From: an uncultured Pseudomonadota bacterium
GTDB lineage: Bacteria; Babelota; Babeliae; Babelales; RVW-14
Direction of reading: 5' to 3'
Length of the DNA: 32,000 nt
Assembly (NCBI GenBank): GCA_964534555.1
Contig: CAZHRK010000005.1
Location: forward strand, 1-32,000
Shown here: positions 1 through 30,890 of the stretch, in pieces
Numbering within the stretch: position 1 is the stretch's first letter
Layout of the letters: each line of letters opens with the position of its first letter
Program-made: the position numbers and the translations under genes
Notes under the pieces: generated by a model
Seen by the model: the letters and a program-made list of their open reading frames with translations, nothing else
Told to the model about the DNA's origin: nothing
The model's database searches: none

Positions 1-850
1 TTCGACCGCCTTTAGTCTTGAGCTTGTCGAAAGGTCAGGGCGAGCGGGGATAGAAGATATTACTTATCTAGTCAGCACGCATCTCACGGCAAGCGGGGGT
101 GGCATCAATCGGGGCGACTAGGGCCGGCGCGGGCAGGAACAGTGGGCTGCCAGGGTCGTTTTAGGCAGGAACAGGCCTAATATAAAAATGTATTTCAATA
201 TATTTATAAGCAAAACCTGTTCCTGTTTTGCAATTGCCCCCAAAGCCCTGTCTCCTGTTTAGGAATTACCCTAAATGCCCGCTCGATCAAACCCTTCGAC
301 AAGCTCAGGGCGAGCGGTAGGGGTAGTTATCTAAAAAATAATTATGGGTTACGTACTGCTTGATTGCAGCGTGTTATCCGGAGGTTCACGGAGGAGTCCT
401 CCGTGCGTTAGTGTAACTTCGCCGGTGCGATCACCTGGAGCATATATGCGAGGGTGATCGGTGGCTGGTCAAGCGAAGCCAGCGCTGGTGGTCTGGGTCC
501 AGGGTGGTGACCAAACACCATCCTGGACGTCTGCGGCCGACGCCGCACAAATAATTAATCATTATTATTAATAATTAAAATTATGATCATTACATAAAAT
601 ATGAGTTTAAAAATACGTATAGCCTAAACCTGTTCCTGTTTAGGAATTGCCCCAAAGGACCCGCTCGATCAAACCCGCAGGCACGCTCAGGGCGAGCGGG
701 GATAGAAGACATCACTTATGTAGTTGTACGCACACTCACGGCGAGCGGGGACAAGTTCATCACACTGAATAAAGAGTTATTAGGGTAGTCGCCAGACAGG
801 AACAGGTTTGGCATATCACATATAAAATTACATGCATTAATAAATTCAAA
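1..850. repeat. Intergenic mosaic-repeat block 1 (modules A, C, H, AT core; encloses S copy 1)
   Basis: A long A variant truncated by the window edge lies at 1..47, and full 39-bp A modules lie at 279..317 and 661..699. H hairpins: TTAGGCAGGAACAGGCCTAA 161..180, GCAAAACCTGTTCCTGTTTTGC 210..231, CCTAAACCTGTTCCTGTTTAGG 623..644, GCCAGACAGGAACAGGTTTGGC 791..812. Segment ~35..290 is homologous to ~7625..7880. Confidence 0.9.
323..600 (+). repeat. S element copy 1: multi-copy GC-rich structured element (candidate ncRNA or non-autonomous mobile element)
   Basis: GC-rich core 346..548 lies between AT-rich flanks. Helices readable directly: CACGGAGG 387..394 / CCTCCGTG 398..405; GATCACC 429..435 / GGTGATC 453..459; GCTGG 464..468 / CCAGC 479..483; GTCCAGGGTGGTG 497..509 / CACCATCCTGGAC 516..528; TGCGGC 532..537 / GCCGCA 542..547. 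Near-identical copies occur at 7321..7590 and 20560..20848 (minus strand). There is no ORF. Confidence 0.8.
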
Positions 851-922
851 TCTTAAAAGATCCCCATCAATACGCTACACTCTTGGCAAGAGTAAGTCTT
901 AAGATTTGTTGGGGGCATAATT

Positions 923-1237
923 ATGGATGCTAAACTACGCGAGCTTGTTGATCGATTGACTGCGGTTTACAACCCGGAGCGTATTTATTTGTTTGGCTCA
1001 CGTGCATGGGGATCGCCGCACGATGATAGTGATTATGATGTTTTGGTTGAGGTTGCAAACAGTAGCCTTGTTCCGCATCGTCGTCCGGTTGCGGGGTACA
1101 TAGAGCTGTATGGCTTTGGCGCTCCGGTTGATCTGCTTGTTTATACAACTGATGAGCTGAATGCACGTAAGGAGTATCCTGGCCGTATTGTTACAAAAGC
1201 TGTGCGAGAGGGGTTAATAATTTATGCTCGATCATGA
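923..1237 (+). CDS. Nucleotidyltransferase-domain protein (MNT-type partner of a HEPN/MNT toxin-antitoxin pair)
   Basis: 104-aa ORF. RIYLFGSRAWG (G-S motif) followed by DSDYDVLV (DxD) is the minimal pol-beta-type nucleotidyltransferase signature. It overlaps the downstream HEPN ORF by 14 nt (translational coupling). Confidence 0.85.
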   Translation: MDAKLRELVDRLTAVYNPERIYLFGSRAWGSPHDDSDYDVLVEVANSSLVPHRRPVAGYIELYGFGAPVDLLVYTTDELNARKEYPGRIVTKAVREGLIIYARS

Positions 1238-1634
1238 ATTATGGATTTCACTTGCATATGAAGATTTTTTAACGGCCAAGGCATTACGTAAAAATCGTTT
1301 TTATAATGGTGCTGCATATCATTGCCAGCAATCAGCTGAAAAAGTGCTTAAGGGATTTCTCTCGTTTAAAAATGCTTCAATTCCTAAAACACATAGCCTT
1401 ATACGATTAGTTGAGGTTTGTAGTGCATATGAAAAAGATTTTGTAAAAATTGTTTCTTATGCTGCAAGCCTTGATCCTTTTAGCACTGCAACGCGCTATC
1501 CAGATAATTTTATTGAAGTAGATAAAACCGAAGTCGGCGTTTTGATTAATGATGCTAAGAAAATTTTTGATTTTGTTATCTCAAAAATAGAGCAATCGAC
1601 TGGGCATCACCAGACTATTATTTTCCCACGATAA
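1224..1634 (+). CDS. HEPN-domain protein (putative RNase toxin of the HEPN/MNT pair)
   Basis: 136-aa ORF. The helix AAYHCQQSAEKVLKGFL and the later TATRYPD are typical of HEPN (COG2250-like) proteins. It lies immediately downstream of the MNT gene and overlaps it. Confidence 0.8.
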   Translation: MLDHELWISLAYEDFLTAKALRKNRFYNGAAYHCQQSAEKVLKGFLSFKNASIPKTHSLIRLVEVCSAYEKDFVKIVSYAASLDPFSTATRYPDNFIEVDKTEVGVLINDAKKIFDFVISKIEQSTGHHQTIIFPR

Positions 1635-1635
1635 A

Positions 1636-2030
1636 ATATTTATAGCCTAAACCTGTTCCTGTTTAGGAATTGCCCCAAAGGACCCGCTCGATCAAACCCG
1701 CAGGCACGCTCAGGGCGAGCGGTAAGGGTAATCGCAAAACAGGAACAGGTTTTGCATTATAAATATATGGAATGCATTATTAATTATATGCGGGCGCGGG
1801 AGTTGCCCGCCCGACCCCAAAGGCCTGTTCCTGCCTAAGACGACCCCAAAGGTTCGCTCGATCAAACCCGCAGGCACGCTCAGGGCGAGCGGGATATAAA
1901 CAACCGCTTTTATAGGCAGCGGGTGGCTGAGGGCGAGCGGAGATAGAAGACATCACACTAAATATCACTTTTTTAGGGTAGTCGCCAGACAGGAACAGGT
2001 CTGGCATATCAACATATACATTCATTTAAA
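1636..2030. repeat. Intergenic mosaic-repeat block 2
   Basis: A modules at 1684..1722 and 1854..1892. D module (TATAAACAACCGCTTTTATAGGCAGCGGGTGGCTGAGGGCGAGCGG) ends at 1940. H hairpins of CCTAAAC, GCAAAAC, TAGGC and GCCAGAC stem types are present, with AT core ~1755..1790. Confidence 0.9.
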
Positions 2031-2069
2031 AACTTTTTTACAAAGAATTTTTACCTTTATTGCATAAGC

Positions 2070-2150
2070 TAACCCCCACTTTTATACTTGATCTACATAA
2101 TTTAACCCCTACTTATAGCCACAATTACTAAAAACTAACCCCCACTTTTA
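2070..2150 (+). promoter_or_regulatory. Three 15-bp direct repeats at exact 33-bp spacing upstream of the AAA ATPase gene (operator/iteron-like)
   Basis: TAACCCCCACTTTTA 2070..2084, TAACCCCTACTTATA 2103..2117, TAACCCCCACTTTTA 2136..2150. The last copy ends 18 nt before the ATG at 2169. Confidence 0.5.
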
Positions 2151-2168
2151 ACCATAAAGGTAATCCTT

Positions 2169-3527
2169 ATGAAGCGGCTTATTGATTACGCCTTGCTTGA
2201 ATGGAAGCAAAACCCTTCCCGTAAGCCACTTCTCGTGCGGGGTGCTCGTCAGGTAGGTAAAACATATGCGCTCAGGGTACTGGGAAAGACTTACGAATCA
2301 TTTGTTGAGGTTAACCTTGAGGAAAACGAGTATGCCAGGCAGATTATTGAGCGTGATTATGATGTTCAGCGTATTATTTTACAGTTGTCTGAATATCTGC
2401 AGCAGGAGATTACGCCAGGCAAAACACTTCTTTTTTTTGATGAAATTCAGGCTTCGCCTCGAGCGATTACTGCGTTGCGCTATTTTTACGAGCGGCTTCC
2501 GCAGCTGCACGTTGCCGCTGCTGGCTCATTATTAGAATTTGCTTTGGAGCAGGTTGGTGTGCCGGTGGGGCGTATTGAATCACGCTTTATGTACCCGTTA
2601 TCATTTGTTGAGTTTTTAGCTGCGCAGGGTAACTCCTTCTGGCTCAAGGCGCTGATTCAAGCACGTCCAGAAGCCCCGCTTTCTGCTGAGCTGCACGTAG
2701 CGCTTATGAATCAAGTCAGTGTGTATTTAGCTGTTGGTGGTATGCCCGAGGCAGTGTCGACATGGCTTGCACAAAAAACATCACGCGCTGTCATGCGCGT
2801 GCACGCGACGCTCCTTGAGTCGTATCAACAAGATTTTGGCAAGTATGCGGCTAAGCACCAAATGAAATATTTAGATCAGATATTTCAAAAAGCGCTTAGA
2901 CAGCTTGGCACCAAATTTATATTTGCGCATGTGGGTGACTATAAAAAGAGGGAGCTTGCGCCGGCTGTTGATCTGCTTGTAAAGGCGGGTGTTTTGCATA
3001 AGGTTTTTAAAACTTCAGCTCAGGGGGTGCCGCTTGGTGCAGAGGCTGAGCTTGATGATTTCAAAATTATTTTTTTAGACTGCGCGCTTGCGCAGGCCCA
3101 GCTTGGCCTTGACCCATCTGCGTGGCTTATTGGTTCTGATAAGCAATTTGCAAATCAAGGAGCATTAATCGAGGCTTTTGTTGGGCAAGAGCTTTTGGCC
3201 TACAGTAACTGGATGCGGCGCGAGCAGCTTTTTTATTGGCGCAGAGATATCAAGGGGAGTGATGCTGAGGTTGATTATGTTGTTCAGCATAATCAAAGCA
3301 TTGTTCCTATCGAAGTTAAAGCCGGTGCTAACAGACGTATTAAAAGTATGTATCTTTTTCTTGAGAGCAGGGCTGATGCTGCTCTTGCACCCGCGGGAAT
3401 ACGAATCTGGGGCGGAGGTTTTGAAAAAGAGCAGGTGCTGAGCTCGTATCCACTTTATGCAATTATTTGTTTTATGCTTGTGGTTAATCATGAGCTCCAA
3501 GAGGTTGTTGATCAGCTTATAAAATGA
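2169..3527 (+). CDS. AAA+ ATPase, AAA_14/DUF4143 family (COG1373-like)
   Basis: 452-aa ORF. Walker A is GARQVGKT and the Walker B-like motif is LLFFDEIQ. The C-terminal part, with AEVDYVV...IVPIEVKAG, is characteristic of the DUF4143 nuclease-like module. Confidence 0.85.
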   Translation: MKRLIDYALLEWKQNPSRKPLLVRGARQVGKTYALRVLGKTYESFVEVNLEENEYARQIIERDYDVQRIILQLSEYLQQEITPGKTLLFFDEIQASPRAITALRYFYERLPQLHVAAAGSLLEFALEQVGVPVGRIESRFMYPLSFVEFLAAQGNSFWLKALIQARPEAPLSAELHVALMNQVSVYLAVGGMPEAVSTWLAQKTSRAVMRVHATLLESYQQDFGKYAAKHQMKYLDQIFQKALRQLGTKFIFAHVGDYKKRELAPAVDLLVKAGVLHKVFKTSAQGVPLGAEAELDDFKIIFLDCALAQAQLGLDPSAWLIGSDKQFANQGALIEAFVGQELLAYSNWMRREQLFYWRRDIKGSDAEVDYVVQHNQSIVPIEVKAGANRRIKSMYLFLESRADAALAPAGIRIWGGGFEKEQVLSSYPLYAIICFMLVVNHELQEVVDQLIK

Positions 3528-3985
3528 TGTTATGCCAAACCTGTTCCGGTCTGGCGACTACCCTAAAAAACTGTTTGCTGTTTTGCAACGCCCCAAAGGG
3601 CCGCTCGATCAAACCCGCAGGCATGCTCAGGGCGAGCGGGTATATAAACAAACGCTTTTATAGGCAGTGGGTGCGCTCAGGGCGAGCGGTAAGGGTAATC
3701 GCAAAACAGGAACAGGTTTTGCATTATAAATATATGGAATTCATTATCAATTATATGCGGGCGCGGGAGTTGCCCGCCCGACCCCAAAAGCCTCTTCCAG
3801 CCTAAGACGACCCTAGAGGTCCGCTCGATCAGACCCTTCGACGAACTCAGGGCGAGCGGGGATAGAAGACATCACTTATCTAGTCAGCACGCATCTTACG
3901 GTGAGCGGTAGGGGTAGTCGCCAGACCGGAACAGGTTTGGCATATCATTATCATGAAATACATTTATTTTATAAGCGGGTGCCGC
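3528..3985. repeat. Intergenic mosaic-repeat block 3
   Basis: A modules at 3601..3639 and 3821..3859. D module ~3640..3689 and C module ~3860..3908. H hairpins are present (GCCAAAC..GTCTGGC at ~3535, GCAAAAC at ~3701, GCCAGACCGGAACAGGTTTGGC at ~3920), with AT core ~3725..3760. Confidence 0.9.
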
Positions 3986-4284
3986 ATACACACACCACAA
4001 AAAAACCTTGCTCTCGTGTCGAACATCGGCTAAGGTAATTTTCAGACAATTGGTTTGCGTTTGTCACAAAAAAAGAGCACAGCATCATGCCATGGCCTTG
4101 AGCCTTGCTACGAGCATGATGATCCAGTCGCCAAAGCTGCAATCTGGACAGGCAAGAAAGGAGGCTCAAAAAGGAGAAGCAAACAATCTTGTTGACTTTT
4201 TAGTCTTGGATTCGGAATAGTAAGCATACGTAATTGTGCGTATGACGATCATAAGCCTATGTTTATTGTGTGAGGTACATACTT

Positions 4285-5826
4285 ATGAATAAATCTCTAA
4301 AGGGTTTATTAGTAGCCCTTCTCGCTGTTAGCGCTGCATCAGCAAATAACAGCACAAACAAAACATTTTTGATGCCACGTTCCCACGGTGTTAACCTTCC
4401 AATGGAAGCTACAACATTTGGTGAACTAACGCATCGTAGAGCAAAAGATGCTTTCGGTGGTAACCTGCAAGTTTCAGGTTTCTACAGCGCAAGCACAAAT
4501 GGTGAAGAGCAAGCAAAATACTTCTTGTTTGCTAATAAGAGCAAAGTTGAATTTGTAGGCAGAACCGCTGCAGCAAAAGATGGCATACTTGAGTACGCAT
4601 TACATGATACACCAGGTGTCGCTGCGGCTAACAGAGATACGCGAGTTCCTGTGGATGCTCTTGCAGGCCTTAGCCTAGATCCAGAGCAAACAGCGTATGG
4701 TGTGCGTTTTGACTATCACCAAGATTTGAGCAAGATCCTTCGTGGTCTTTACCTCAGAGCAAGCCTTCCTGTTGCTCATGTAGAGAATGATGTTCAAGTA
4801 AAAACAACATCTGCTGGGGCAGGTCTTCCTGTTGCTATGACAGGTCTTGCAGTTGTTACTCCTGCTGGTGATGTACTTAAGTCATACCTTGCAGGTACGT
4901 ACTCAAATGCTACAGCTGCTAACGCTCAAGAGAAATTAACACACGCTTTAGTTGCTGGTGCGCAATCAGAAACAGGCGTTGCTGATATTGATGTTCAGCT
5001 CGGCTATAAGGTGCTTGATAAAGCAAACTACCATATGGCGCTTGCACTCGGCTTAACGATTCCTACAGGAAACGAAGCTGATGGCAAATACCTTTTCCAA
5101 CCAATTGTTGGTAATGGTAAGCACTTTGGCCTTGGTGGTGATGTATGCGCTGGCGCACGTGTGTGGGGCGATATGGACCACAACCTCCGCCTCAGCATGC
5201 ACCTTCGTTACCGCTATCTTTTCGAGTCATCACAAAAGCGTACACTTGGCCTAAAAAATCAAGATGGTTCAGCTATTGCATTTGCACAATATGCACTTGT
5301 TCAAGTTGAAGCAGCTGGTGCTAACGCTGCACTTAGACCTTTTGCAAACGTGTTCACTGTTAATACAGATGTAACCCCAGGCAGCCAGCTTGATGGCAGC
5401 CTTGCACTTGCGTATAACAATGGTGGCTGGTCTGTTGATCTTGGCTACAACATGTTCTATCGCGAAGCTGAATCTGTTAAAATCAAAGGTACGGCTCCAG
5501 AAAAATATGCTGTGGTAAACCAGGTTTGGGATACTACTCAAGTTTTTCCTGCTGCAACAGGTGCAAACTTTGCTGTTACTGCTAATGGTAATGCTAACGC
5601 TCTTAATGCTGGTAGCCATTATCTTATTACAAAAGACAATCTCGACCCCCGTGCAGCTGCAACTGATTCAGCGTTCACAAACGCGATCTATGCTGGCGCT
5701 GGCTACACATTCAAAGAGTGGGATACACCTTTGATGCTTGGCGTAGGTGGCAAATACGAATTTGCTAACGACAACAACGCTCTCGAGCAATGGGGCGTAT
5801 GGGGTAAAGTTGGTGTTGGTTTCTAA
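4285..5826 (+). CDS. Outer-membrane beta-barrel protein (porin-like), family 1, paralogue of 28629..30518
   Basis: Signal peptide MNKSLKGLLVALLAVSAASA; GAGG lies 8 nt upstream of ATG 4285 (the track start at 4270 is a GTG). The mature part has alternating beta-strand-like segments. The C-terminus ...WGKVGVGF ends in Phe, as in the OMP beta-signal. It shares TNKTFLMPRS, ADIDxxxGYK, TIPTGN and YLFQPIVGNG-type motifs with the 28629 gene. Confidence 0.8.
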   Translation: MNKSLKGLLVALLAVSAASANNSTNKTFLMPRSHGVNLPMEATTFGELTHRRAKDAFGGNLQVSGFYSASTNGEEQAKYFLFANKSKVEFVGRTAAAKDGILEYALHDTPGVAAANRDTRVPVDALAGLSLDPEQTAYGVRFDYHQDLSKILRGLYLRASLPVAHVENDVQVKTTSAGAGLPVAMTGLAVVTPAGDVLKSYLAGTYSNATAANAQEKLTHALVAGAQSETGVADIDVQLGYKVLDKANYHMALALGLTIPTGNEADGKYLFQPIVGNGKHFGLGGDVCAGARVWGDMDHNLRLSMHLRYRYLFESSQKRTLGLKNQDGSAIAFAQYALVQVEAAGANAALRPFANVFTVNTDVTPGSQLDGSLALAYNNGGWSVDLGYNMFYREAESVKIKGTAPEKYAVVNQVWDTTQVFPAATGANFAVTANGNANALNAGSHYLITKDNLDPRAAATDSAFTNAIYAGAGYTFKEWDTPLMLGVGGKYEFANDNNALEQWGVWGKVGVGF

Positions 5827-5873
5827 TCAGACCGATTCCATCATTACTCATTGACCTAATAAGTCATGAAAAG

Positions 5874-5902
5874 AGGGTTCTGCTAGCGCAGGGCCCTTTT
5901 TT
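5874..5902 (+). terminator. Rho-independent terminator of the 4285..5826 gene
   Basis: Stem AGGGTTCTGC 5874..5883 / GCAGGGCCCT 5888..5897 (10 bp including 2 G-T), loop TAGC, then a T run to 5902. Confidence 0.75.
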
Positions 5903-5918
5903 ATTGCAAGGAGCATTT

Positions 5919-6158
5919 GTGAGCCCAACTGTTTTACGGTATAAAAATTATAGACTTTTCTTTTTCTCTCATGAGGAGCCGCGTATGCATGTGCATATTT
6001 CATCTCCTGATGGTGAGGCCAAGTTTTGGCTAGAGCCAATGGTTGCACTTGCTGATTATAGCGGGTATTCTGAGAGGCAGCTTAAAGAGCTTTCAAAATT
6101 GGTAGAAAAACATGCAAAAGAAATTGAAAAAGCCTGGAAAAAACACTTTAGGGTTTGA
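5919..6158 (+). CDS. DUF4160-domain protein
   Basis: AAGGAG 5908..5913 lies 5 nt before GTG 5919 (the track start at 5904 is a TTG). The sequence VSPTVLRYKNYRLFFFSHEEPRMHVHISSPDGEAKFWLEP fits the DUF4160 pattern (short N-terminal strand plus a histidine-rich motif). Confidence 0.75.
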   Translation: MSPTVLRYKNYRLFFFSHEEPRMHVHISSPDGEAKFWLEPMVALADYSGYSERQLKELSKLVEKHAKEIEKAWKKHFRV

Positions 6159-6381
6159 GATTTCTAATATCTCACGCCATGGAATGTGGCTTTTGATTGG
6201 CGAAAAAGAGTTCTTCATATCGTTTAAAGAGTATCCCTGGTTTTTGCAAGCAAAAATTGATCAGGTATATGCGGTTGAGTTTGCACACGGCAAATTCCTG
6301 CATTGGCCCGAGCTCGATATTGATATTGAGCTTGCTGCGCTTGAAAATCCTACGGCATATCCACTTGTTTATAAAAAGTAG
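6112..6381 (+). CDS. DUF2442-domain protein (usual partner of DUF4160)
   Basis: 89-aa ORF overlapping the end of the DUF4160 gene. WLLIGEKEFFISFKEYPWF...LHWPELDIDIEL matches the DUF2442 pattern (xxHWPxLDxDI). The start is uncertain: ATG 6112 or TTG 6124. Confidence 0.7.
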   Translation: MQKKLKKPGKNTLGFEISNISRHGMWLLIGEKEFFISFKEYPWFLQAKIDQVYAVEFAHGKFLHWPELDIDIELAALENPTAYPLVYKK

Positions 6382-6387
6382 TATTTT

Positions 6388-6423
6388 AAGAGAGGGCCCT
6401 GCGCTAGCGCAGGGCCCTCTCTT
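6388..6423 (+). terminator. Perfect 17-bp-arm palindrome after the DUF2442 gene (terminator-like hairpin)
   Basis: AAGAGAGGGCCCTGCGC-TA-GCGCAGGGCCCTCTCTT. It shares GCTAGCGCAGGGCCCT with the hairpin at 5874..5902. Only a short or interrupted T tract follows. Confidence 0.5.
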
Positions 6424-6829
6424 ATTAGAATAATTTTAAGTAATTATATTTGATAAGCCAAACCTGTATCCGGTCTGGCGACTACCCTAACAACCGATTA
6501 TTCAGTGTGATGATGCCAGCCCCCGCTCGCCCTGAGTTTATCGAAGGGTCTGATCGAGCGGCCTTTTTGAGCCGTCTTAGGCAGGAAACAGTGCGCCGCT
6601 AGGGCCGGGCGGGCAGGAACGGGCCCGCATATAATAAAGTATGAAATCCATATATTTATAAGCAAAACCTGTTCCTGTTTTGCGATTACCCTAGAAAACG
6701 AACATTTGTCTGATGATCTTGTCCCCGCTCGCCCTGACCTTTCGACAAGCTCAAGACTAAAGGCGGTCGAAGGGTTTGATCGAGCGGACCTTGTGTTAAT
6801 AAATCTATTACTCAAATTAATCATAATTT

Positions 6830-7095
6830 TATGTATTAAAAATAATGATTAATTAATAATTGTGCGGCGTCGGCCGCAACCGACCAAAGGGGTGCATCGA
6901 CCACCCCTCTGGACACAGGTCGCCAGGCTACGCCCTGGACCCAGCGCTTCAGCCACAGCAGCATCGCCTTCAGCACACACGCTGCGCGTGATGCGCTGCT
7001 CAGCTGCTGGAAGTGCCTCGGCCCGGCACTTGACTCAGCGCGTAATGACCGGCATAGCTGCGCGGCGATACTCATTAAGCACGTTGCTTCGTTAA
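6830..7095 (-). repeat. S element copy 4 (divergent homologue, minus strand)
   Basis: It shares the terminal hairpin with S1-3 (plus-strand TGCGGC 6863..6868 / GCCGCA 6873..6878), the AT-rich tail, and GCGCTGGGTCCAGGG. The equivalent long helix is CCAAAGGGGTG 6884..6894 / CACCCCTCTGG 6902..6912, with compensatory changes relative to S1. The remainder is GC-rich but diverged. Confidence 0.6.
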
Positions 7096-7240
7096 AATTA
7101 ATTATGTGAGTATCTTGCGTAGCACGCAGTTTTGAGCGCTGCGCGCCTGACGACCAAAAACGCTACGGTCTCAAAGCGCGCTACGCGCTGGCTTGTTCGA
7201 CACGGCTGTTTTGGCTCAACGGAAAATAATGATATAAGCA
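7095..7240 (+). repeat. Short GC-rich structured segment lying back-to-back with S copy 4
   Basis: It starts with AATTATGTGAGTATCTTGCGTAGC, which resembles the 5' end of the S elements (AATTATGGGTTACGTAC). GCGTAGC.CGC pairs with GCGCGCTACGC further on. It is seen once only in this window. Confidence 0.35.
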
Positions 7241-7320
7241 AAACCTGTTCCTGTTTAGGTATTGCCCCAAAGGTCCGCTCATGCAAACCCTTCGACGCGC
7301 TCAGGGCGAGCGGGGACAAA

Positions 7321-7590
7321 GTAGTTATCTAAAAAATAATTATGGTTTACGTACAGCTTGATCGCAGCGTGTTATGCGGAGGTTCACGGAGGTGTCCTCC
7401 GTGCGTTAGTGTAACTTCGCCGGTGCGATCACCTGGAGCATGTATGCGAGGGTGATCGGTGGCTGGTCCAGCGATGCCAGCGCTGGTGGTCTGGGTCCAG
7501 GGTGGTGACCAAACACCATCCTGGTCGTCTGCGGCCGACGCCGCACAAATAAATAATCATTATTATTAATAATTAAAATTTAATGTAAGA
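7321..7590 (+). repeat. S element copy 2
   Basis: Aligns base-for-base with 323..600, with a few substitutions (e.g. the loop of the CACGGAGG hairpin, and GGTCCAGCGATGCC versus GGTCAAGCGAAGCC). It is preceded by A 7275..7313 and followed by A 7598..7636, both in the same orientation. Confidence 0.8.
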
Positions 7591-8018
7591 AAGAGGATCG
7601 CTCGATCAAACCCTTCGACAGGCTCAGGGCGAGCGGGGATATAAGACATCACTTATCTAATCAGCATTCACCTCAGGGCGAGCGGGGGTTGATACATCTG
7701 GGCGCTTATTAGGGCCGGCGCGGGGGTGGCATCAATCGGGGCAGTTGGGGCCGGGCGGACAGGAACAGTGGTCTGCCAGGGTCGTCTTAGGCAGGAACAG
7801 GCCTAATATAAAAATGTATTTCACTATATTTATAGCCTAAACCTGTTCCTGTTTTGCAATTTCCCCAAAGGTCCGCTCGATCAAACCATTCGACAAGCTC
7901 AGGGCGAGCGGTAGGGGTGATACATCTGGACCGCCAGGGTCGTCTTAGGCAGGAACGGGCCTAATTAAATAAAATATGAATTCCATATATCTTCAGCATC
8001 ACCAGGCAACGCAGAGTC

Positions 8019-8047: not shown

Positions 8048-8172
8048 AATTCTATTCATTTATTTTTGAGTGAGAGAGCTTTATGCAAAGTTTGTTTGCA
8101 GTCAAAAAGCCTTGTGGACGAGAAAATCGCTCCAGATCAAAAAAGAATAAGATCTTATTAAGGAGAGTGTGT

Positions 8173-12262: not shown

Positions 12263-12311
12263 GCATATGCGCGCACCATCTTTTAATCGAAGCACCATGC
12301 AATGCAGAGTC

Positions 12312-12340
12312 TTGCAAAACCCCCCATTTCTTCTTATGGT
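12312..12340 (+). promoter_or_regulatory. Sigma70-like promoter candidate of the 12374 gene
   Basis: TTGCAA 12312..12317, a 17-nt spacer, then TATGGT 12335..12340. AAGGAG 12361..12366 precedes ATG 12374. The geometry matches 8019..8047. Confidence 0.5.
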
Positions 12341-20983: not shown

Positions 20984-21394
20984 TCAAATCGCTCCTAGTT
21001 TTGTTTTACGTGCAGATTTTTTTAATGTTTCTGCAAGTTCCGCTTTTGAAACTATTCCCTCTGCAACATTTGTTACGAGTTGGAAAGCACTTTTATTTGA
21101 AGCTTTAAATACGTAATTATTATTTTCAAGAAAAACAAGGGCAACAGTAAATCCTGTGCGCTTGTTGCCATCAATAAAGGGATGATTTTTAATAATATGA
21201 AACATGTACGCTGCTGCTTGATCAAAAATAGTCTTATGCAGGAGCTGTCCAAACATTCGAGCTTCTGCTTGATGAAGAGCAGAGCGAAGCAACCCTTCAT
21301 CTCTTATGCCATGAATACCACCAAAAGCTGCAATCATGTGCTCATGAATCATGAGCACACTTTCATAATCGAGAAAAATCGGAGTTTGCTTCAT
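20984..21394 (-). CDS. doc: Fic/Doc family toxin (death-on-curing type)
   Basis: 136-aa ORF. The motif HPFIDGNKRTG matches the Doc signature HxFx(D/N)(A/G)NKR. The N-terminus GIRDEGLLRSAL is typical of the family. It overlaps the upstream antitoxin ORF by 4 nt. Confidence 0.9.
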   Translation of the reverse strand: MKQTPIFLDYESVLMIHEHMIAAFGGIHGIRDEGLLRSALHQAEARMFGQLLHKTIFDQAAAYMFHIIKNHPFIDGNKRTGFTVALVFLENNNYVFKASNKSAFQLVTNVAEGIVSKAELAETLKKSARKTKLGAI

Positions 21395-21618
21395 TGAGCG
21401 AGTTTTTTAAGCGTTGAGGCATATCGTTTTGACACAGATGCCAAGCTTTTTTTTACAGCAGCTTTGCTGATTGTTTGTTTTTCTTGAACAACCTCAGCAG
21501 AAAAAATTCCTTTTGATAATGAAATTTTAAAATCTGAAGAGGGGTCAACATTCATTTTCTTTAGGTCTGCTTGCTCAAGAACAAAGCAAAAACTTTTTCC
21601 AACTTTTACAAGTTTCAT
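21391..21618 (-). CDS. AbrB/SpoVT-like antitoxin of the Doc toxin
   Basis: 75-aa ORF with an ATGA overlap with doc. The N-terminus MKLVKVGKSFCFVLEQADLKKMNV resembles swapped-hairpin (AbrB/MazE) DNA-binding domains. The assignment rests mainly on position and size. Confidence 0.65.
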   Translation of the reverse strand: MKLVKVGKSFCFVLEQADLKKMNVDPSSDFKISLSKGIFSAEVVQEKQTISKAAVKKSLASVSKRYASTLKKLAQ

Positions 21619-21740
21619 ACGGAAGTTCTTTCATGAAAAAATGAACGCTTAAACATTGTATAATCGTAACATGTTTTTTTTCGCAAAATACATTTTTTGC
21701 AATTTCCCCAAAAGCCCGGTTCCTGTTTAGGAATTTCCCC

Positions 21741-21794
21741 AGCTGAATATAAATTTTTTGATGCTATTTCAAGCCAGTGTTTATGATTTTGCAT
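21741..21794 (-). pseudogene. Remnant (first ~18 codons) of a HEPN gene, truncated by a repeat unit
   Basis: The minus-strand ATG at 21794 overlaps the MNT stop by 14 nt, the same geometry as 1224 versus 1237. The remnant MQNHKHWLEIASKNLYSA aligns with MLDHELWISLAYEDFLTA. From ~21740 the sequence becomes the repeat GGGGAAATTCCTAAACAGGAACCGGGCTTTTGGGGAAATTGCAAAA. Confidence 0.6.
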
Positions 21795-22095
21795 AAATCA
21801 CCTTGCCGCTCTTAATTATCTTGGCAATAAGTGATGATGGCTCTTCTGCTCTAGTCTGGAGCTCATCTGTTGTATACACCAAAAGATCTACAGGTTCACC
21901 AAAGCCTATCAATGAACGATAGCCTTTTTTTGATCTAACAAGAATACGTTCTGTCGAGGCATCAAGTTCAACTAAAATATCATAATCACTTGAGTGTGAA
22001 ATATCTCCCCATACGCGTGAACCAAAAAGATAAATACGCTCGGGATTATATGCCTCAGTCAATCGATCAATAAGATCACGTAGTTTAGCATCCAT
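21781..22095 (-). CDS. Nucleotidyltransferase-domain protein (MNT type), paralogue of 923..1237, now without an intact HEPN partner
   Basis: 104-aa ORF. MDAKLRDLIDRLTEAYNPERIYLFGSRVWG...SSDYDILVEL is collinear with and highly similar to the 923 gene. Confidence 0.85.
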   Translation of the reverse strand: MDAKLRDLIDRLTEAYNPERIYLFGSRVWGDISHSSDYDILVELDASTERILVRSKKGYRSLIGFGEPVDLLVYTTDELQTRAEEPSSLIAKIIKSGKVIYAKS

Positions 22096-22164: not shown

Positions 22165-22800
22165 GATGGGTTGTCGCCAGAGCGGCCCGCTCGCCGTGAG
22201 CGTGCCTGCGGGCCTGATCGAGCGGACCGCCAGGGTCGTCTTAGGCAGGAAACAGTGCGCCGCCAGGGCCGGGCGGGCAACTCCCGCGCCCGCATATAAA
22301 AATGTATTTCAACATAGTGATAAACAAAACCTGTTCCTGTTTTGCAATTGCCCCTGAAAATGAATTTTTATATTTTGATAAGCCAAACCTGTTCCGGTCT
22401 GGCGACTACCCCTACCACTCACCCTGAGCGCACTCGCTAGCTATAAATGCATTTGTTTCTATCACCGCTCGCCCTGAGCCTGCCTGCGGGTCTGATCGAG
22501 CGGACCTTTGGGGCAATACCTAAACAGGAACAGGTTTAGGGTATAAATATAGTGAAATATATTATTAATAAATTATATGCGGGCCTGTTCCTGCCCGCGC
22601 CGGCCCTAAGCGCCCAGATGTATCAACCCCCGCTCGCCCTGAGCGTGCCTATGGGTCTGATCGAGCGGACCGCTAGGGTCGTCTTAGGCAGGAACGGGCC
22701 TAATTAAATAAAATATGAATTCAATATAGTTATAAGCAAAACCTGTTCCTGTTTTGCGATTACCCTGGCAGCCCACCGCCCCTGTCTTCCTGCCCGCGCA
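22165..22800. repeat. Intergenic mosaic-repeat block 9
   Basis: Reverse A modules at 22187..22225, 22465..22503 and 22630..22668. There are at least 7 H hairpins, with AT cores at ~22290..22325, ~22545..22575 and ~22700..22735. Confidence 0.9.
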
Positions 22801-28071: not shown

Positions 28072-28329
28072 GAAGATATTCCTTTTTGCCTACGTGTTAA
28101 TAGTGCCTGCGTTATGTGTTGATGACATGGTACACACTGCACGCCACTTCATGAATAAAAAGTTTACATCTTGTATGCAACATTTGTGTTAAATCATTGT
28201 AAAAAAAGATTTCATTTGCATACGATTGGTGCTGAATTTAAGCGGTTAATTTTGGTAAGACTAAGACTCTATTTGGGTTAGTAAAAAATTGATCCTTTTG
28301 CGCATCGTGCTAAGAATGTTTGATACAGC

Positions 28330-28510
28330 GCCTCTGGGGTAATCGCAAAACAGGAGACAGGTTTTTAGGGTAGTTGCCAGACCGGAACAGGTCCTCTAGG
28401 GAAATTCCTAAACAGGAACAGGTTTAGGTTATAAATATATGGAAATACATTTTTACATTAGGCCTGTTCCTGCCTAAGACGACCCTGGCGGCCTCGATGT
28501 TCGTGCCTAA
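28330..28510. repeat. Intergenic mosaic-repeat block 10 (H units and AT core only)
   Basis: Homologous to 20336..20495. Hairpin CCTAAACAGGAACAGGTTTAGG lies at 28407..28428, and TAGGCCTGTTCCTGCCTAAG at ~28462. Confidence 0.85.
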
Positions 28511-28628
28511 GACGACCGCAGCGCAGCAGTTTCTGTTTATCACTTACCAAAATTGATACTTTGTTCTGAGCAGCACAGCGCGTTTTGTGGCTCGTGACTT
28601 TGGTTTATACACGTTATTGGTGCATACA

Positions 28629-30518
28629 ATGATCAAAAAAATAACTACGTATTTTTGTCTCTTAGGCCTTATCAGCTCAGTGCTGCGGGCAACGGATAAG
28701 ATTCATACAAACAAAACGTTTCTTATGCCGCGAAGCGTTGCATTCAATTCACCAATGATGAATACAAGCTTTGAGCAGCTGTATGGGCGTGACTCTGGTC
28801 ATGCGTATCGCACATGGTCGCGTGATCACACTAAAAAACCTCAGTCAGACCAGCAGAAAAGCAGATTTGGTCTTACTACGCAGACAACAATGTTTTATCA
28901 AGAGTCTCGCGGCGAGGCGCTGCTGTCGCGATATTTTTTAGCTGATAATCAGCAAGAAATTACACTGACATCAGTTGGTGATATTGCTGGCGCTGCAGGA
29001 TCAGCCGCGCGTGATCTTGATTATGATTATATAATTCATGACGCAACGCACCAAAAAGATTTTGGTGGGGTTACTGTTGATCGTGCTCCAGGAAACGATA
29101 ATACTGCATACCTTGGGCTTGACCCTCGGCGAATTACTCAAGGTACGCGTATGGATTTGTACTGCAACCTTGATGCCTTAGTTGCAGGGCTTTATTTTCG
29201 TGCGTCAACAGCGCTTGTTGACCTTGAGCATGATACCCGCTTGCGTGTGACAAGCAGCGAAAAATATGTTGCAACAACACTTGGGGATGAGGTTCCTGTG
29301 TCATTTGCGCTTGAGGGCTATTTTGAAGGGGTATTTGAAAACACAACACCACAAAACCGACAGGTAGCTCTTACAAAAGGTTTATTTAAGGGCAAAAATC
29401 GTCAGGTTGGATTTGCAGATATTGATTGTACGTTTGGGTATAAGATTGTATCAATCAACAGATTCAGTATGCACCTGGGTGCAGGATGTACACTGCCAAC
29501 TGGTAATAAGCCGCGCGGTGAGTATCTTTTTCAAGCTGTTGTAGGAAACGGCGGGCACTTGGGCGTTGGTGTTGATACTGATTTTCAGTTTGATGTTTGG
29601 CATGATCATGAAAATGACGTGAAGCTCTATGGTTCGGCGCGGTATCGCTACCTTTTTTCTGCGCAGCAGCAACGCACGTTGGGTTTAAAAGGGCATAAAC
29701 TTGGGCAGTATAAACTTGTTGCTGATGTGCAAGCTCCAGCGGGTGCGCCGCTGATTCCTGCTGCAAACCTTACAACGCTTGCTGTTGATGTGCTACCAGG
29801 AAGTGTCTTTGATGGCTGCCTTGGTATGAAGTATGCATGGCGCGGAGTTCAGCTCGATGCTGGGTACAATTATTATTTTAAAAACAGAGAGACGCTCACG
29901 CAGCGTGGCAGTATAGAAAAAAATCGTTATGCAATCGCTGCGCGTAAGTTTGATACCAGCTATCGATTTGGTGCTTACAGCGTGCGCGCAACAGCTCAAA
30001 GTGGAATTGCTCCTGGTGACGGTGATGCTGAGATACCAGCTCATACTCAGTATGAGATCAATCAGGGACCAACGCAGATTTCACCAGTTCTAGTTCATGA
30101 AGTGTTAGATGACGGTGTAGAAAAAGAAATTACTCTCTATGGTGATAGCCTGACTGGTGTTTTTTTGACTCCTCCATTTGGAGGTGGTCGTATTGACAAT
30201 CGAGAATCAACAGATCCGCTTGCTCGGCAAAATATTGTTGCTGCGCTTAATCGACAAGCAGCTAGGCTTCCATCAACATCTATCCCCGTTGAGCATCTTG
30301 ATGGTGCTGCGCAAGCTGTTTTTATTGATCAGCTTGTTGATGTTGTTACAGCTCGGTCACCACAGGCATCGACTCATGGCCTGTATGGCAGTGTTGGGTA
30401 TGTGTTTGATTGGAACTGCCCGTTGCTTATTGCTGGTGGTGCACAGTATGAGTTTGCTCTTGTAAATAGTGATATTGAGCAGTGGGCTGTGTGGGCGAAG
30501 ATTGGATTTGGATTTTGA
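28629..30518 (+). CDS. Outer-membrane beta-barrel protein (porin-like), family 1, paralogue of 4285..5826 with extra loop insertions
   Basis: Signal peptide MIKKITTYFCLLGLISSVLRA from ATG 28629 (the track start at 28587 is a GTG). It shares TNKTFLMPRS, ADIDCTFGYK, TLPTGN and YLFQAVVGNGGH with the 4285 gene. The C-terminus ...WAKIGFGF ends in Phe. Confidence 0.8.
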   Translation: MIKKITTYFCLLGLISSVLRATDKIHTNKTFLMPRSVAFNSPMMNTSFEQLYGRDSGHAYRTWSRDHTKKPQSDQQKSRFGLTTQTTMFYQESRGEALLSRYFLADNQQEITLTSVGDIAGAAGSAARDLDYDYIIHDATHQKDFGGVTVDRAPGNDNTAYLGLDPRRITQGTRMDLYCNLDALVAGLYFRASTALVDLEHDTRLRVTSSEKYVATTLGDEVPVSFALEGYFEGVFENTTPQNRQVALTKGLFKGKNRQVGFADIDCTFGYKIVSINRFSMHLGAGCTLPTGNKPRGEYLFQAVVGNGGHLGVGVDTDFQFDVWHDHENDVKLYGSARYRYLFSAQQQRTLGLKGHKLGQYKLVADVQAPAGAPLIPAANLTTLAVDVLPGSVFDGCLGMKYAWRGVQLDAGYNYYFKNRETLTQRGSIEKNRYAIAARKFDTSYRFGAYSVRATAQSGIAPGDGDAEIPAHTQYEINQGPTQISPVLVHEVLDDGVEKEITLYGDSLTGVFLTPPFGGGRIDNRESTDPLARQNIVAALNRQAARLPSTSIPVEHLDGAAQAVFIDQLVDVVTARSPQASTHGLYGSVGYVFDWNCPLLIAGGAQYEFALVNSDIEQWAVWAKIGFGF

Positions 30519-30539
30519 GGGGTGTAGGTAAAAGGCTCT

Positions 30540-30890
30540 GATCGAAGTCATTTAGGGTAATACCTAAAACAGGAACAGGTTTAGGTATTAAATATATTGA
30601 AATACATTATTAATAAATTATATGCGGGCGCGAGAGTTGCCCGCGCCGGCCCTATCAAACCAATATATTTGTTTTATGACGATGTCTTCTATCCCCGCTC
30701 GCCCTGAGCCTGTCGAAGGGTCTGATCGAGCGGTCATTATAATGAATGTATATTTGATATGCCAAACCTGTATCCGGTCTGGCGACTACCCCTACCGCTC
30801 GCCCTGAGCACACCCACTGCCTATAAAAGCTTTTGTTTATATTCCCGCTCGCCCTGAGCGTGCCTGCGGGTTTGATCGAGCGGACCGTCT
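30540..30890. repeat. Intergenic mosaic-repeat block 11
   Basis: Reverse A modules at 30695..30733 and 30845..30883, with a D module at ~30795..30851. H hairpins lie at ~30553 and ~30765, with an AT core at ~30585..30620. Confidence 0.9.

Follow-up and report, generated by a model that had tools for sequence, protein, structure and literature searches.

A dense hairpin mosaic between the genes of a Babeliales genome

The 32,000-nt stretch of DNA analysed here (the window) is part of a Babeliales (Dependentiae) genome, for which about 37 kb of sequence was the whole available scope. Between its genes lie very dense blocks of modules (A to E), in which hairpin units of alternating orientation are set apart by spacers of two kinds and keep clear of the genes. 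Self-BLAST places the repeats at 6,637 bp in total, or 21% of the window, close to the ~7 kb estimated by eye in the original prediction, and ~70% of the 9,461 non-coding bases are small hairpin repeats. All twelve blocks outlined in that prediction were recovered to within a few bases (12/12), along with a thirteenth.

Block 1 (1–825) comprises a truncated long-form A (1–47), a D unit, A copies at 279 and 661, E copy 1 and B hairpins at 160–181(+), 210–231(−), 623–644(−) and 791–812(+). Block 2 (1636–2026) reads B2(−) A B1(+) ... B4(−) A C D′ B3(+), its B hairpins lying at 1646–1667(−), 1734–1755(+), 1818–1839(−) and 1984–2005(+). C and D units also occur in block 3 (3531–3983), with A at 3601 and 3821 and B at 3534–3555(−), 3701–3722(+) and 3920–3941(+). 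Block 4 (6422–7990) holds A at 6523, 6725 (long form), 7275, 7598 and 7873, E copies 4 and 2, and B at 6608–6629(+), 6662–6683(−), 7238–7259(−), 7786–7807(+), 7836–7857(−) and 7944–7965(+). Three C units are found in block 5 (11366–12260), where A starts at 11622, 11772, 12044 (an indel variant) and 12195 and B occupies 11417–11438(−), 11474–11495(−), 11689–11710(−), 11857–11878(+), 11942–11963(−) and 12111–12132(−). Block 6 (15473–15748) carries B at 15477–15498(−) and 15596–15617(−), tandem half-units (15620–15700) and A at 15709.

Block 7 (17166–17423; B at 17202–17223(−) and 17328–17349(−)) ends with an A copy just downstream of a gene for a GIY-YIG protein. Block 8 (17924–18247) combines A at 17938 and 18068 and a truncated A (18222–18241) with B at 18004–18025(−), 18122–18143(+) and 18175–18196(−); block 9 (20165–20957) combines D and C units, a long-form A at 20273, a tandem B array (20340–20447), B at 20463–20484(−), A at 20515, E copy 3, A at 20854 and B at 20908–20929(+). 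The additional small block, 21695–21741(−), consists of degenerate B half-units between a Fic antitoxin gene and an orphan nucleotidyltransferase (NTase) gene (21781–22095) that has lost its HEPN partner, no remnant of which was detectable. Block 10 (22165–22800) has A at 22187, 22465 and 22630 and B at 22324–22345(−), 22382–22403(−), 22519–22540(+), 22578–22599(−), 22683–22704(+) and 22736–22757(−). Only B units make up block 11 (28325–28498), a tandem array of two half-units and one complete hairpin (28340–28441) followed by B at 28457–28478(−). Block 12 (30540–30887) contains B at 30564–30585(+), A at 30695, a degenerate B3(−), a C unit and A at 30845.

The repeats are real, as first described, and non-random: 25 module A copies stand against none expected, 6.6 kb of the window is self-similar and parts of the mosaic recur in independent assemblies. 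Two Logan contigs from other read sets match base for base: L132 covers 3918–6420, and L137 covers 1865–3560, including A-C-D′-B3 ... gene ... B3 and thus block 2 from 1865 to 2026. Misassembly is thereby excluded. Coding regions are free of modules, as predicted: none lies inside a credible gene, and the three 10-mer loop matches within ORFs each have one mismatch and lack stems. No support was found for the one truncated gene that the prediction had made an exception, the orphan NTase being free of any detectable HEPN remnant. The mosaic is BIME- and REPIN-like in its alternating hairpin units, extragenic sites and density, which bears out the likeness suggested earlier; the parallel drawn with pneumococcal BOX elements was a poor one, since nothing in the window resembles a boxA/B/C organisation.

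Module A and the GIY-YIG gene

Module A is a 39-bp element of the form CCGCTCG-N25-CGAGCGG, for which we counted 25 matches with at most one mismatch, compared with 0.00 in 100 shuffles. All 25 fall where the original prediction had placed full-length copies; its total of 28 becomes 25 canonical copies and three variants. One variant, 12044–12083(−), has a GCAGGC-type centre, one inserted nucleotide and a mismatch at a terminus; the others, 6725–6787(−) and 20273–20335(−), are long forms of 63 bp that contain a further internal palindrome (CCTTTCGAC...GTCGAAGGG in the former). There are indeed two kinds of centre, which by our parse span 9 bp rather than the 10 bp first given. The TTCGAC type (n = 14) is found at 279–317(+), 3821–3859(+), 6523–6561(−), 7275–7313(+; 1 mismatch), 7598–7636(+; 1 mismatch), 7873–7911(+), 11622–11660(−), 11772–11810(−), 12195–12233(−), 15709–15747(−), 17381–17419(−), 17738–17776(+), 17938–17976(−) and 30695–30733(−). 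The GCAGGC type (n = 11) is found at 661–699(+), 1684–1722(+), 1854–1892(+; 1 mismatch), 3601–3639(+), 18068–18106(−; 1 mismatch), 20515–20553(−), 20854–20892(−), 22187–22225(−), 22465–22503(−), 22630–22668(−; ATAGGC) and 30845–30883(−). These eleven lack the conserved TCGAAGG box and are perhaps not substrates of the nuclease.

Exactly between two inverted A copies lies an intact gene for a single-domain GIY-YIG nuclease of 94–95 aa (17424–17711, minus strand; Pfam PF01541, E = 2e-16); no other protein-coding part of the system turned up in the window. The right-hand inverted repeat (17381) starts 4 nt past the stop codon, and the left-hand one (17738) ends 26 nt before the start codon. The original prediction had passed over the gene, which falls between its blocks 17166–17420 and 17738–18245. 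The protein is 100% identical to P0001, shares 45–63% identity with its homologues and retains every residue that is invariant in the family alignment; it is a predicted Ssn-like nuclease.

The same architecture in other phyla

The original prediction did not recognise the module sequences, which is only half correct. For module A it does not hold: its core, TTCGACAAGCTCAGGGCGAGCGG, is a palindromic element that recurs across phyla, including 33 IMG/VR contigs of 45–71% GC. Among genome contigs we collected 80 homologous loci, spread over some eight phyla, in which inverted arms bracket the GIY-YIG gene; each arm consists of a 5′ tag (CCGyTC), a 5-bp covarying stem and a conserved loop of 11 nt (GAGCyTGTCGA). 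In Babeliales contig L034, for instance, CCGTTCTCCCTGAGG..TCGAAGGG stands on one side of the gene and its inverse on the other. Across the 80 loci, 58 of 79 L-form and 69 of 94 R-form 17-mer matches lay within 250 bp of the gene, with the expected polarity and at fixed offsets (−35 to −50 upstream, +13 to +48 downstream). Significant terminal inverted repeats, scoring above the 95th percentile of controls, flanked the gene at 51 of 76 testable loci. A generalised arm was present upstream at 42/76 and downstream at 51/76 loci, where the background rate is 0.006 per 160 nt, and gene calls ran into arm-derived peptides in 50 of 149 cluster representatives. The element also occurs as solitary inverted pairs away from the gene.

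The arms fold. Stems were perfectly complementary in 159 of 182 distinct arms and fell into six types; 97 cells were doubly changed compared with 41 in shuffles, a value that none of 500 shuffles reached, and G-T wobbles occurred on one strand only. Module A folds like this arm hairpin and is the local, compacted form of the cross-phylum element. Its expansion is lineage-specific, since other Babeliales loci carry the gene-flanking pair only; A is amplified about tenfold in the window lineage relative to other gene-carrying genomes.

SsnA of Neisseria, a 94-aa GIY-YIG protein, cuts single-stranded DNA (ssDNA) beside its flanking NTS hairpin repeat, and the NTS-ssnA-NTS architecture has been noted as IS-like and REP/RAYT-like (PMC11893778). 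The same 2025 work describes Ssn/SRM, in which a small GIY-YIG site-specific ssDNA nuclease is flanked by, and acts on, dispersed hairpin repeats (PMC11893778). The window unit shares with SsnA/NTS the repeat-gene-repeat layout and the small protein. The general principle of nuclease-associated hairpin repeats is thus already published; the repeat here is a different motif. The SRM motif as published has no match in the window, module A included, and among the 80 homologous loci it comes within 300 bp of the gene at just two. The arm-flanked clade may therefore stand beside Ssn proper as a sister group instead of belonging to it.

Module B, module E and the spread of the repeats

A second family, module B, is REP-like and restricted to this lineage. 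The 42 B hairpins combine an invariant loop, AGGAACAG, with 5–6 covarying stems: 93% of positions are paired, double changes affect 6 of 7 stem pairs and the covariation score is 0.70 compared with 0.285 in shuffles. B was not found outside the window lineage and has no known counterpart in the material searched. Its units form tail-to-tail dimers, as at 143–248 (B4(+), an AT-rich spacer and B1(−), with loops ~40 nt apart and GGG heads outwards), and head-to-head composites, as at 1636–1768 (AT tail, B2(−), A, B1(+), AT tail). In the head-to-tail array at 20340–20447(+), two half-units stop immediately behind the loop (..ACAG, then the next 5′ flank) and a complete B1 with AT tail follows. Chimeric stems occur at 7238–7259(−), with a B2-type 5′ side (CCTAAAC) and a B1-type 3′ side (GTTTTGC), and at 7836–7857(−), with the converse (GCAAAAC, B1-type; GTTTAGG, B2-type).

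The junctions coincide precisely with the 3′ end of the loop, which suggests that DNA is broken and joined at this point. The invariant loop and covarying stems argue for a sequence-and-structure-specific partner, which would be encoded outside the window. The window holds no candidate partner gene for B, and B could have been amplified by recombination at a 10-nt identity, CAGGAACAGG, and not by an enzyme.

The explanation that we lean towards is that the intergenic DNA was colonised by small repeats that fold as single strands, A being tied to the Ssn-like GIY-YIG nuclease and B forming a separate REP-like family served by such an outside partner. Several families of this kind would pile up beside and between each other, giving BIME-like mosaics. 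By analogy with SsnA and NTS, the nuclease most likely binds A in its folded single-stranded state and nicks the DNA next to it. The dispersed A copies would stem from the repeat-gene-repeat unit, or this unit would be their domesticated keeper, much as RAYTs relate to REPs and REPINs. GIY-YIG nucleases are not known for strand transfer, a point against this account of how copies spread. The mosaic first described gains, for A, nuclease-linked relatives across phyla and, for B, a very abundant family that, like E, is still without a described counterpart in the material searched.

Module E is structured, ~270 nt long and present in four copies. Copy 1 (322–600(+)) has a GC-rich core of ~230 nt of stable hairpins and an AT-rich tail; copies 2 and 3 lie at 7320–7597(+) and 20554–20850(−), and copy 4 (6836–7095(−)) has diverged to ~60% identity, its hairpins kept through some compensatory changes.

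No target-site duplications were seen. The mosaic differs between close strains: in the closely related contig L133, the flanks at the locus of block 3 are 100% identical to the window, and the modules upstream of 3984 differ in set and orientation.

Extent and turnover of the repeat mosaic

The window has ~45% GC and a low coding density, with 22.5 kb of coding and 9.46 kb of non-coding DNA. Self-comparison recovered the twelve intergenic repeat blocks delimited in the original prediction (6,637 bp of repeated DNA), as well as a small block at 21695–21741. None of the modules lies within any credible gene, in agreement with the avoidance of coding regions that had been described for them. The frame of the 39-bp module A, CCGCTCG-N25-CGAGCGG, matched 25 times when up to one mismatch was allowed, compared with no match in 100 shuffles. 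These canonical copies all lie at positions where full-length A modules had been predicted. The other three of the 28 predicted copies are variants: copy 12044 carries a 1-nt insertion, and copies 6725 and 20273 are 63-bp long forms. Including 34 copies of a 14-mer common to modules A, C and D, none of these dispersed elements falls in a gene, and the window carries about one A copy and more than one hairpin of module B per kb. Module A is in forward orientation in the first 8 kb (except at 6523 and 6725) and reversed from 11.6 kb on (except at 17738), and neither gene orientation nor GC skew changes at this switch; the element may prefer one strand, or the contig may have been joined wrongly here.

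Two Logan contigs that derive from other sequencing runs are identical to the window. L132 equals positions 3918–6420 base for base, with its end falling in a B unit, and L137 equals positions 1865–3560, comprising A-C-D′-B3, an ATPase gene and the following B3 unit. The repeats are thus real and not an assembler artefact, and the misassembly envisaged in the original prediction is contradicted by two independent assemblies that repeat the local module order exactly.

The mosaic turns over. In L133, a contig from another sample, the flanks of the locus encoding an OMP-like protein are 100% identical to window positions 3984–4269 and 5827–5900. Upstream of position 3984, L133 carries B1(−), B3(−) with the loop variant CTGTATCC, and an oppositely oriented A. 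Identical flanks next to other modules indicate that the mosaic changes faster than its surroundings. This lineage or a close relative is present in samples SRR14271331, SRR14271335 and SRR13076594. The OMP-like gene itself (4270–5826), which has homologues throughout Dependentiae/Babeliales/TM6, is present in L133 as an allele (257–2155, corresponding to window 3984–5900) whose 286-nt leader and 3′ flank are 100% identical; within the coding region, blocks of 100% identity alternate with blocks of 33–70% (40-aa windows), a pattern suggestive of hypervariable surface loops or of alleles being exchanged at a fixed locus.

Searches for known elements covered several classes. Rfam covariance models gave no match at the gathering score across the whole window, and at E ≤ 1 three weak, chance-level matches in positions 1–8000; the window has no tRNA or tmRNA genes. 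Its modules have no similarity, on reading the sequence, to the enterobacterial Y/Z REPs, and Rfam returned nothing for the modules either. No target-site duplications were seen at A or B ends, and the 32 kb contain neither an IS, DDE or any other transposase gene nor a RAYT (Y1/HUH transposase) flanked by repeats. Pfam searches of ORFs overlapping the mosaic yielded nothing significant, suggesting that they do not hide a transposase. We rejected CRISPR, as the units have a fixed sequence without unique spacers, and integron attC sites, as R/L boxes and an integrase are absent. A literature search for repeats in Dependentiae returned nothing relevant.

Arm hairpins around a GIY-YIG gene

The repeat unit that connects the mosaic to other genomes is a single hairpin, the arm, which consists of a 5′ tag CCGyTC, a five-pair stem and a conserved 11-nt loop, GAGCyTGTCGA. 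Stems were typed on 182 distinct simple arms from 72 loci. Perfectly complementary stems were found in 159 of them, and six main versions occur: CCCT/AGGG (59 arms), GGCT/AGCC (31), TGGT/ACCA (23), TCCT/AGGA (16), GCCT/AGGC (16) and TGCT/AGCA (14). When 77 arms were aligned, four stem pairs covaried, with 97 doubly changed cells compared with 41 in shuffles, a value that 0 of 500 shuffles reached; the two outermost proposed pairs had no covariation support in this alignment. G-T wobbles (18 at one pair) fit folding of the CCGyTC strand only. Together, stem covariation and one-strand wobbles indicate that the element is under selection to fold as a single strand. Solitary elements often combine two inverted arms with different stems, so each arm must fold on itself and not with its partner. 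Module A is an arm hairpin with a CCCT/AGGG stem and the identical loop, enclosed by a further stem of 7 bp (CCGCTCG/CGAGCGG) that has a 6-nt bulge. Eleven A copies have a GCAGGC-type centre and lack the TCGAAGG box, and C and D units have only the first 14 nt, CCGCTCGCCCTGAG, in common with A.

The original prediction had presented the modules as unrecognised repeats only, overlooking the key gene between its blocks 17166–17420 and 17738–18245. This ORF (17424–17711, minus strand) encodes a GIY-YIG protein of 94–95 aa, with PF01541 (residues 5–77) as its sole Pfam domain and with every residue that is invariant across an alignment of 27 homologues. Two A copies with TTCGAC-type centres bracket the gene: on its 5′ side, the copy at 17738–17776 ends 26 nt ahead of the start codon, and on its 3′ side an inverted copy (17381–17419) begins 4 nt past the stop. 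A protein encoded on an NCBI contig of 37,005 bp is 100% identical to it, and the nearest solved structures are UPF0213 proteins (E = 1e-11). A tblastn search against plasmids returned ordinary homologues only, B. subtilis YazA having 36% identity, and NCBIfam gave nothing for this protein or for eight other window proteins.

Arms bracket the nuclease gene with fixed polarity in many phyla. We analysed 80 loci that encode homologues and come from named genomes, among them Sphingomonadales, Burkholderiales, Legionella, Coxiellaceae, Lysobacterales, Dehalococcoidia, Myxococcales, Chitinophagaceae, Flavobacterium, Fibrobacterota, Sulfuricurvum, Geobacteraceae, Syntrophobacter and Babeliales. The arm 17-mer CCTGAGCTTGTCGAAGG, searched with up to 3 mismatches, lay within 250 bp of the GIY-YIG gene in 58 of 79 forward and 69 of 94 inverse matches, with forward matches upstream at −35 to −50 and inverse matches downstream at +13 to +48. 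When the 200 nt ahead of the gene were aligned to the reverse complement of the 200 nt downstream, the median score was 49, compared with 18 in controls, and flanking inverted repeats above the 95th percentile of control maxima were present in 51 of 76 homologous loci. A Myxococcales contig of 76% GC has a 54-bp near-perfect inverted repeat around the gene, Flavobacterium has an AT-rich version, and in a second Babeliales genome (L034) the GIY-YIG gene likewise lies between arms. A generalised arm pattern was found upstream in 42 and downstream in 51 of the 76 loci, at a background of 0.006 per 160 nt. The core 23-mer of A, TTCGACAAGCTCAGGGCGARCGG, also occurs in 33 IMG/VR contigs (GC 45–71%), where it forms one arm and two inverted arms lie 10–40 nt apart; no GIY-YIG gene was found in the stretches carrying these pairs.

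Other Babeliales genomes have only the gene-flanking arm pair. In the flanks of the 80 loci, at more than 250 bp from the gene, the 17-mer occurs about 0.08 times per kb, compared with 0.5 times per kb in the window, and the 14-mer common to A, C and D occurs about once per kb in the window. These densities indicate a roughly tenfold expansion of the repeat in this lineage, which combines an extreme repeat load in a host-dependent bacterium with otherwise compact relatives and is a natural system for studying repeat multiplication and its cost or benefit to the host.

Arms also leave a trace in protein databases. Of the 149 cluster representatives most similar to the protein in a library of 1.8 billion proteins, 142 exceed the 94-aa core in length, and 50 (34%) contain arm-translated peptides (RPELVEG, LSLSKG, FDKLRANG, LRQAQxER or PSTSSGR). 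Overlong GIY-YIG gene calls are mostly ORFs that have run into the flanking arms, a systematic annotation artefact. Peptides of the RPELVEG, FDKLRANG and LSLSKG type are common in hypothetical ORFs, and the arm hairpin is their source in the extended gene calls. A literature search for the arm DNA strings or the arm-derived peptides found nothing relevant.

The window system belongs to a known kind, nuclease-associated hairpin repeats, as represented by Ssn/SRM and REP/RAYT. SsnA of N. meningitidis is a single-domain GIY-YIG protein of 94 aa (cd10448) that binds the NTS hairpin repeat in single-stranded form and cleaves the DNA immediately upstream of it, leaving dsDNA and RNA uncut (Chenal et al. 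2025, PMC11893778). Across many phyla, Ssn homologues have related repeats, termed ‘SRM’, on their flanks, and the authors likened NTS-ssnA-NTS to an insertion sequence and to the REP/RAYT relationship (PMC11893778). The window shares with it a ~94-aa single-domain GIY-YIG protein, inverted hairpin repeats bracketing the gene, many intergenic copies, and a directional repeat made of a conserved 5′ tag and a hairpin. However, NTS consists of CGTCA, a 7–8-bp stem and a 3–5-nt loop (PMC11893778), whereas here CCGyTC is followed by a 5-bp stem and an 11-nt loop, to which this lineage adds the 7-bp closing stem. The published SRM motif, HGTCWYN(0-2)YYVSBRHN(0-5)WNVSBRGN(0-2)RNCYNB, has no match in the window (0.08 in shuffles), and only 2 of the 80 homologous loci have it at a distance of up to 300 bp from the gene. 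In a Coxiellaceae MAG contig, L056, whose homologue is 51% identical, both repeats are nested (3830–4420): canonical NTS-like repeats (TGTCATTCCCGCGCAGGCGGGAATC at −167 and its inverse at about +150) lie outside an inner arm-type pair. The two are thus distinct repeat types, and members of the protein clade do encounter NTS-like repeats. The CGTC/GTAG REP catalogue of Di Nocera et al. 2013 lacks the arm sequence (PMC3733652). Overall, the mosaic combines a new repeat class that is well supported with a second, lineage-specific family that is unexplained.

Modules B and E

All 42 B hairpins in the window have the invariant loop AGGAACAG. Each unit is ordered as a 15–16-nt 5′ flank containing GGG, a 6–7-bp stem, the loop and a ~17-nt AT-rich tail, and the stems fall into five to six types (GCAAAAC, CCTAAAC, GCCAGAC, TTAGGC, GCGGGC and GTAGGC). 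Pairing extends to 93% of stem cells, in a set selected for at least 4 pairs, which inflates pairing but not compensatory changes. Six of seven pairs have changes on both sides, with a covariation score of 0.70 compared with 0.285 in shuffles (0 of 500 reaching it), and G-T wobbles mark one strand, the one bearing the loop AGGAACAG. GTAG stands 2 nt ahead of the stem in B3, and in B4 CGTC adjoins a stem beginning TT...AA; B1, B2, B5 and module A have neither motif.

B units occur in three arrangements. Tail-to-tail units have loops ~40 nt apart; units arranged head to head nearly always have module A (with or without C, D or E) between the heads; and in head-to-tail arrays the upstream units end exactly past the loop, where the next 5′ flank begins. 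We counted seven such loop-end junctions, and four chimeric hairpins join the 5′ stem of one type to the 3′ stem of another. Such structures suggest that units have been broken and joined where the loop ends on its 3′ side, or have recombined through the 10-nt identity CAGGAACAGG. Genes and operons sit between B(+) and B(−), with the AT tails toward the genes. Promoter-like sites (24, compared with 20.0 ± 4.6 in shuffles) and terminator-like sites (17, compared with 13.6 ± 4.4) are not enriched; one B3 tail yields a near-consensus TTGGCA-N18-TATAAT at 12115–12086. At both 6424–6455 and 17166–17200, a B3(−) unit is preceded by the AT-rich tail AGAATAATTTTAAGTArTTATATTT(T)GATAAGCCAAACC, which in each case directly follows a terminator-like hairpin; the two hairpins (past 6381 and past 17106) are unrelated. 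This suggests a preferred entry point just past transcript ends.

Module B was found only in this lineage (the window, L132, L133 and L137) and is absent from five other Babeliales loci. Patterns for the B dimer and module E had only chance matches in coding DNA in IMG/VR, and a 22-mer of the B hairpin gave 6 single chance matches and no repeats in a metagenome collection, so that neither B nor E was traced beyond the lineage in these collections. The window offers no candidate partner gene for B. An AAA_14/DUF4143 ATPase gene between two B3 units with identical 5′ flanks was set aside because it is a conserved neighbour gene in a distant Babeliales genome that lacks B.

Compared with published CGTC REPs, which have 8–9-bp stems, 4–5-nt loops and a CCA tail (PMC3733652), B has 6–7-bp stems, an 8-nt invariant loop and the ~17-nt AT-rich tail. 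Tagged stem-loops, frequent heterodimers and occurrence in many phyla characterise the CGTC/GTAG REPs; B4 has CGTC and B3 GTAG, whereas most B subfamilies and module A have neither tag. With the nick sites of rolling-circle Rep (HUH) proteins, B shares an invariant loop, covarying stems and junctions at the loop end. This is an analogy only: there is no Rep gene here, B is present in dozens of chromosomal copies, and its loop is unrelated to known rolling-circle nonanucleotides.

Module E, of ~270 nt, has copies at 322–600, 7320–7597, 20554–20850 and 6836–7095, three of which are nearly identical and one ~60% identical. Its GC-rich core contains stable hairpins (z-score −4.4 on one strand and −4.6 on the other), and a few compensatory changes distinguish the copies. 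E had no match in Rfam, in Pfam or, by BLAST, in plasmid records; it might represent a family of small RNA genes or form the core of a further mobile element.

Possible origins of the mosaic and neighbouring genes

By analogy with one characterised relative, the nuclease would probably recognise the folded single strand of A and nick beside A, and the repeat-gene-repeat unit would be the source or keeper of the dispersed A copies. Such nucleases are not known to have strand-transfer activity. Two linked and less probable possibilities go further. The arm may be the cognate element of a distinct clade of GIY-YIG ssDNA nucleases, with which it would form an undescribed repeat–nuclease system that has its own sequence specificity and spreads horizontally, either as a GIY-YIG counterpart of RAYT/REPIN or as a new ssDNA-based mobile element. 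As for B, it may be a new kind of REP whose invariant loop is the cut-and-join site of an ssDNA enzyme, in which case the whole mosaic would be built by loop-directed joining rather than classical transposition; the loop and the loop-end junctions provide a concrete lead to this putative enzyme. The 2025 Ssn work established that a GIY-YIG domain on its own can read a hairpin repeat and cleave ssDNA site-specifically, and suggested that many such enzyme–site pairs may exist (PMC11893778). If our reading is true, the arm and its nuclease would be a second, structurally different pair, combining a long, conserved loop with a short stem that covaries and ranging from Dependentiae to Myxococcota, and would account for a palindrome that contaminates gene calls across many genomes.

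The structural analogy with BIMEs and REPINs drawn in the original prediction was apt. REP/BIME and REPIN–RAYT systems have in common with the window high-copy extragenic hairpins of 20–40 nt, inverted dimers with tags outward, mosaics of alternating orientation with defined spacers, and a nuclease or transposase gene that is present once and has its own repeats on either side; as in E. coli BIMEs, the set of spacers is small, here A/C/D/E modules between heads and AT-rich stretches between tails. Unlike in REPIN–RAYT, the window gene encodes a GIY-YIG nuclease and not a Y1/HUH transposase, and the invariant part of B is the 8-nt loop rather than a 5′ GTAG. Rickettsia palindromic elements (RPEs) and the Neisseria Correia and dRS3 elements are likewise small palindromes massively expanded in a host-dependent bacterium, but have no sequence similarity to the window elements. 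RPEs insert in frame into genes, whereas the window elements keep out of coding regions; Correia elements have TA duplications and DDE-type ends.

The hairpins, especially B, might instead be REPs moved in trans by a single-copy Y1 (HUH) transposase encoded elsewhere in the genome, with the GIY-YIG gene a mere neighbour. HUH enzymes cut and rejoin ssDNA, an activity that the loop-end junctions and chimeric stems of B would fit, and both the REPIN-like inverted B dimers, with tags outside, and the BIME-like mosaic count in favour, as do GTAG in B3 and CGTC in B4, which lie close to the stem on its 5′ side and are the two tags by which REP superfamilies are defined (PMC3733652). We nevertheless consider this unlikely: the window lacks a transposase of any kind, most B subfamilies have neither tag, it is the loop and not the 5′ tetranucleotide that is invariant, and the association of A with the GIY-YIG gene is too strong and too polarised across phyla for a chance neighbour; CGTC-type REPs have themselves been reported without any associated transposase (PMC3733652). 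Homing would reverse the relationship, a free-standing GIY-YIG gene having inserted between the hairpins of a pre-existing palindrome, cutting and copying itself into empty copies without creating the repeats. Arm-gene-arm and arm-short spacer-arm do relate to each other like occupied and empty homing sites, solitary palindromes occur in contig stretches without a visible gene, and GIY-YIG is a classic homing-endonuclease fold. Yet the protein is a bare 94-aa catalytic domain without the DNA-binding domain of I-TevI-type enzymes, only one gene accompanies 28 potential targets in the window, the characterised relative cuts only ssDNA and makes no double-strand breaks (PMC11893778), and the spread and cross-phylum conservation of the repeat would be left unexplained, all of which makes homing improbable.

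Similarly improbable, in our view, is a purely host-serving role, in which the hairpins are selected cis elements, acting in transcript 3′-end stabilisation or termination, gene insulation, or binding of nucleoid proteins or gyrase (as proposed for E. coli BIMEs), and their copies arise only by ordinary recombination and slippage. Blocks that start right past gene ends or terminator-like hairpins, AT tails of B that always face genes, the near-consensus promoter in the B3 tail and covarying stems, also expected of RNA elements, are consistent with such roles. However, the hairpins lack U-tracts, promoter- and terminator-like sites show no enrichment, and the polarised link to a nuclease gene has no explanation in these terms; modules that vary between near-identical strains at one locus, and related Babeliales without the mosaic, argue against an essential role. 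Classical MITEs, internally deleted insertion sequences moved by a DDE transposase, would also be small, high-copy and intergenic; A has 7-bp terminal inverted repeats, and the B dimer as a whole forms an imperfect palindrome around an AT-rich centre. The lack of target-site duplications, of an IS or DDE transposase in the window and of BLAST matches in plasmid records makes this origin very improbable, as do covarying stems and invariant loops, which indicate selection for single-strand folding that DDE ends do not need. Collapsed or chimeric repeats created by the metagenome assembler are hardly credible at all. Although short-read Logan contigs break within the mosaic (L132 ends in a B3 unit) and the flip in A orientation between 8 kb and 11.6 kb at unchanged GC skew could be a wrong join, the module order is reproduced base for base in assemblies from two other runs, A and B modules also occur in a third contig, which stems from another sample, and the copies differ by point substitutions and covarying stems, like real paralogous repeats.

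Between the repeat blocks, the window also encodes ankyrin proteins and several toxin–antitoxin-like pairs, which are unusually dense. An NTase/HEPN pair (923–1634) and a Fic gene with a small upstream ORF (20984–21618) are both bounded by B units with AT tails toward the genes; further pairs are DUF4160/DUF2442 (5904–6381) and an HTH gene with a putative Fic-like downstream ORF (31264–32000), the latter cut by the window end. A second NTase gene (21781–22095, minus strand) has no HEPN partner, unlike its paralogue at 923–1634. No HEPN remnant was detectable beside it (20984–22095), the place of the partner being occupied by degenerate B half-units (21695–21741) and by the Fic toxin with its small upstream ORF. 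Two large proteins of 1,082 aa (8083–11331) and 1,055 aa (12302–15469), in which Pfam and NCBIfam detected no domains, are paralogues with 26% identity and have similar N-termini that read as signal-peptide-like.
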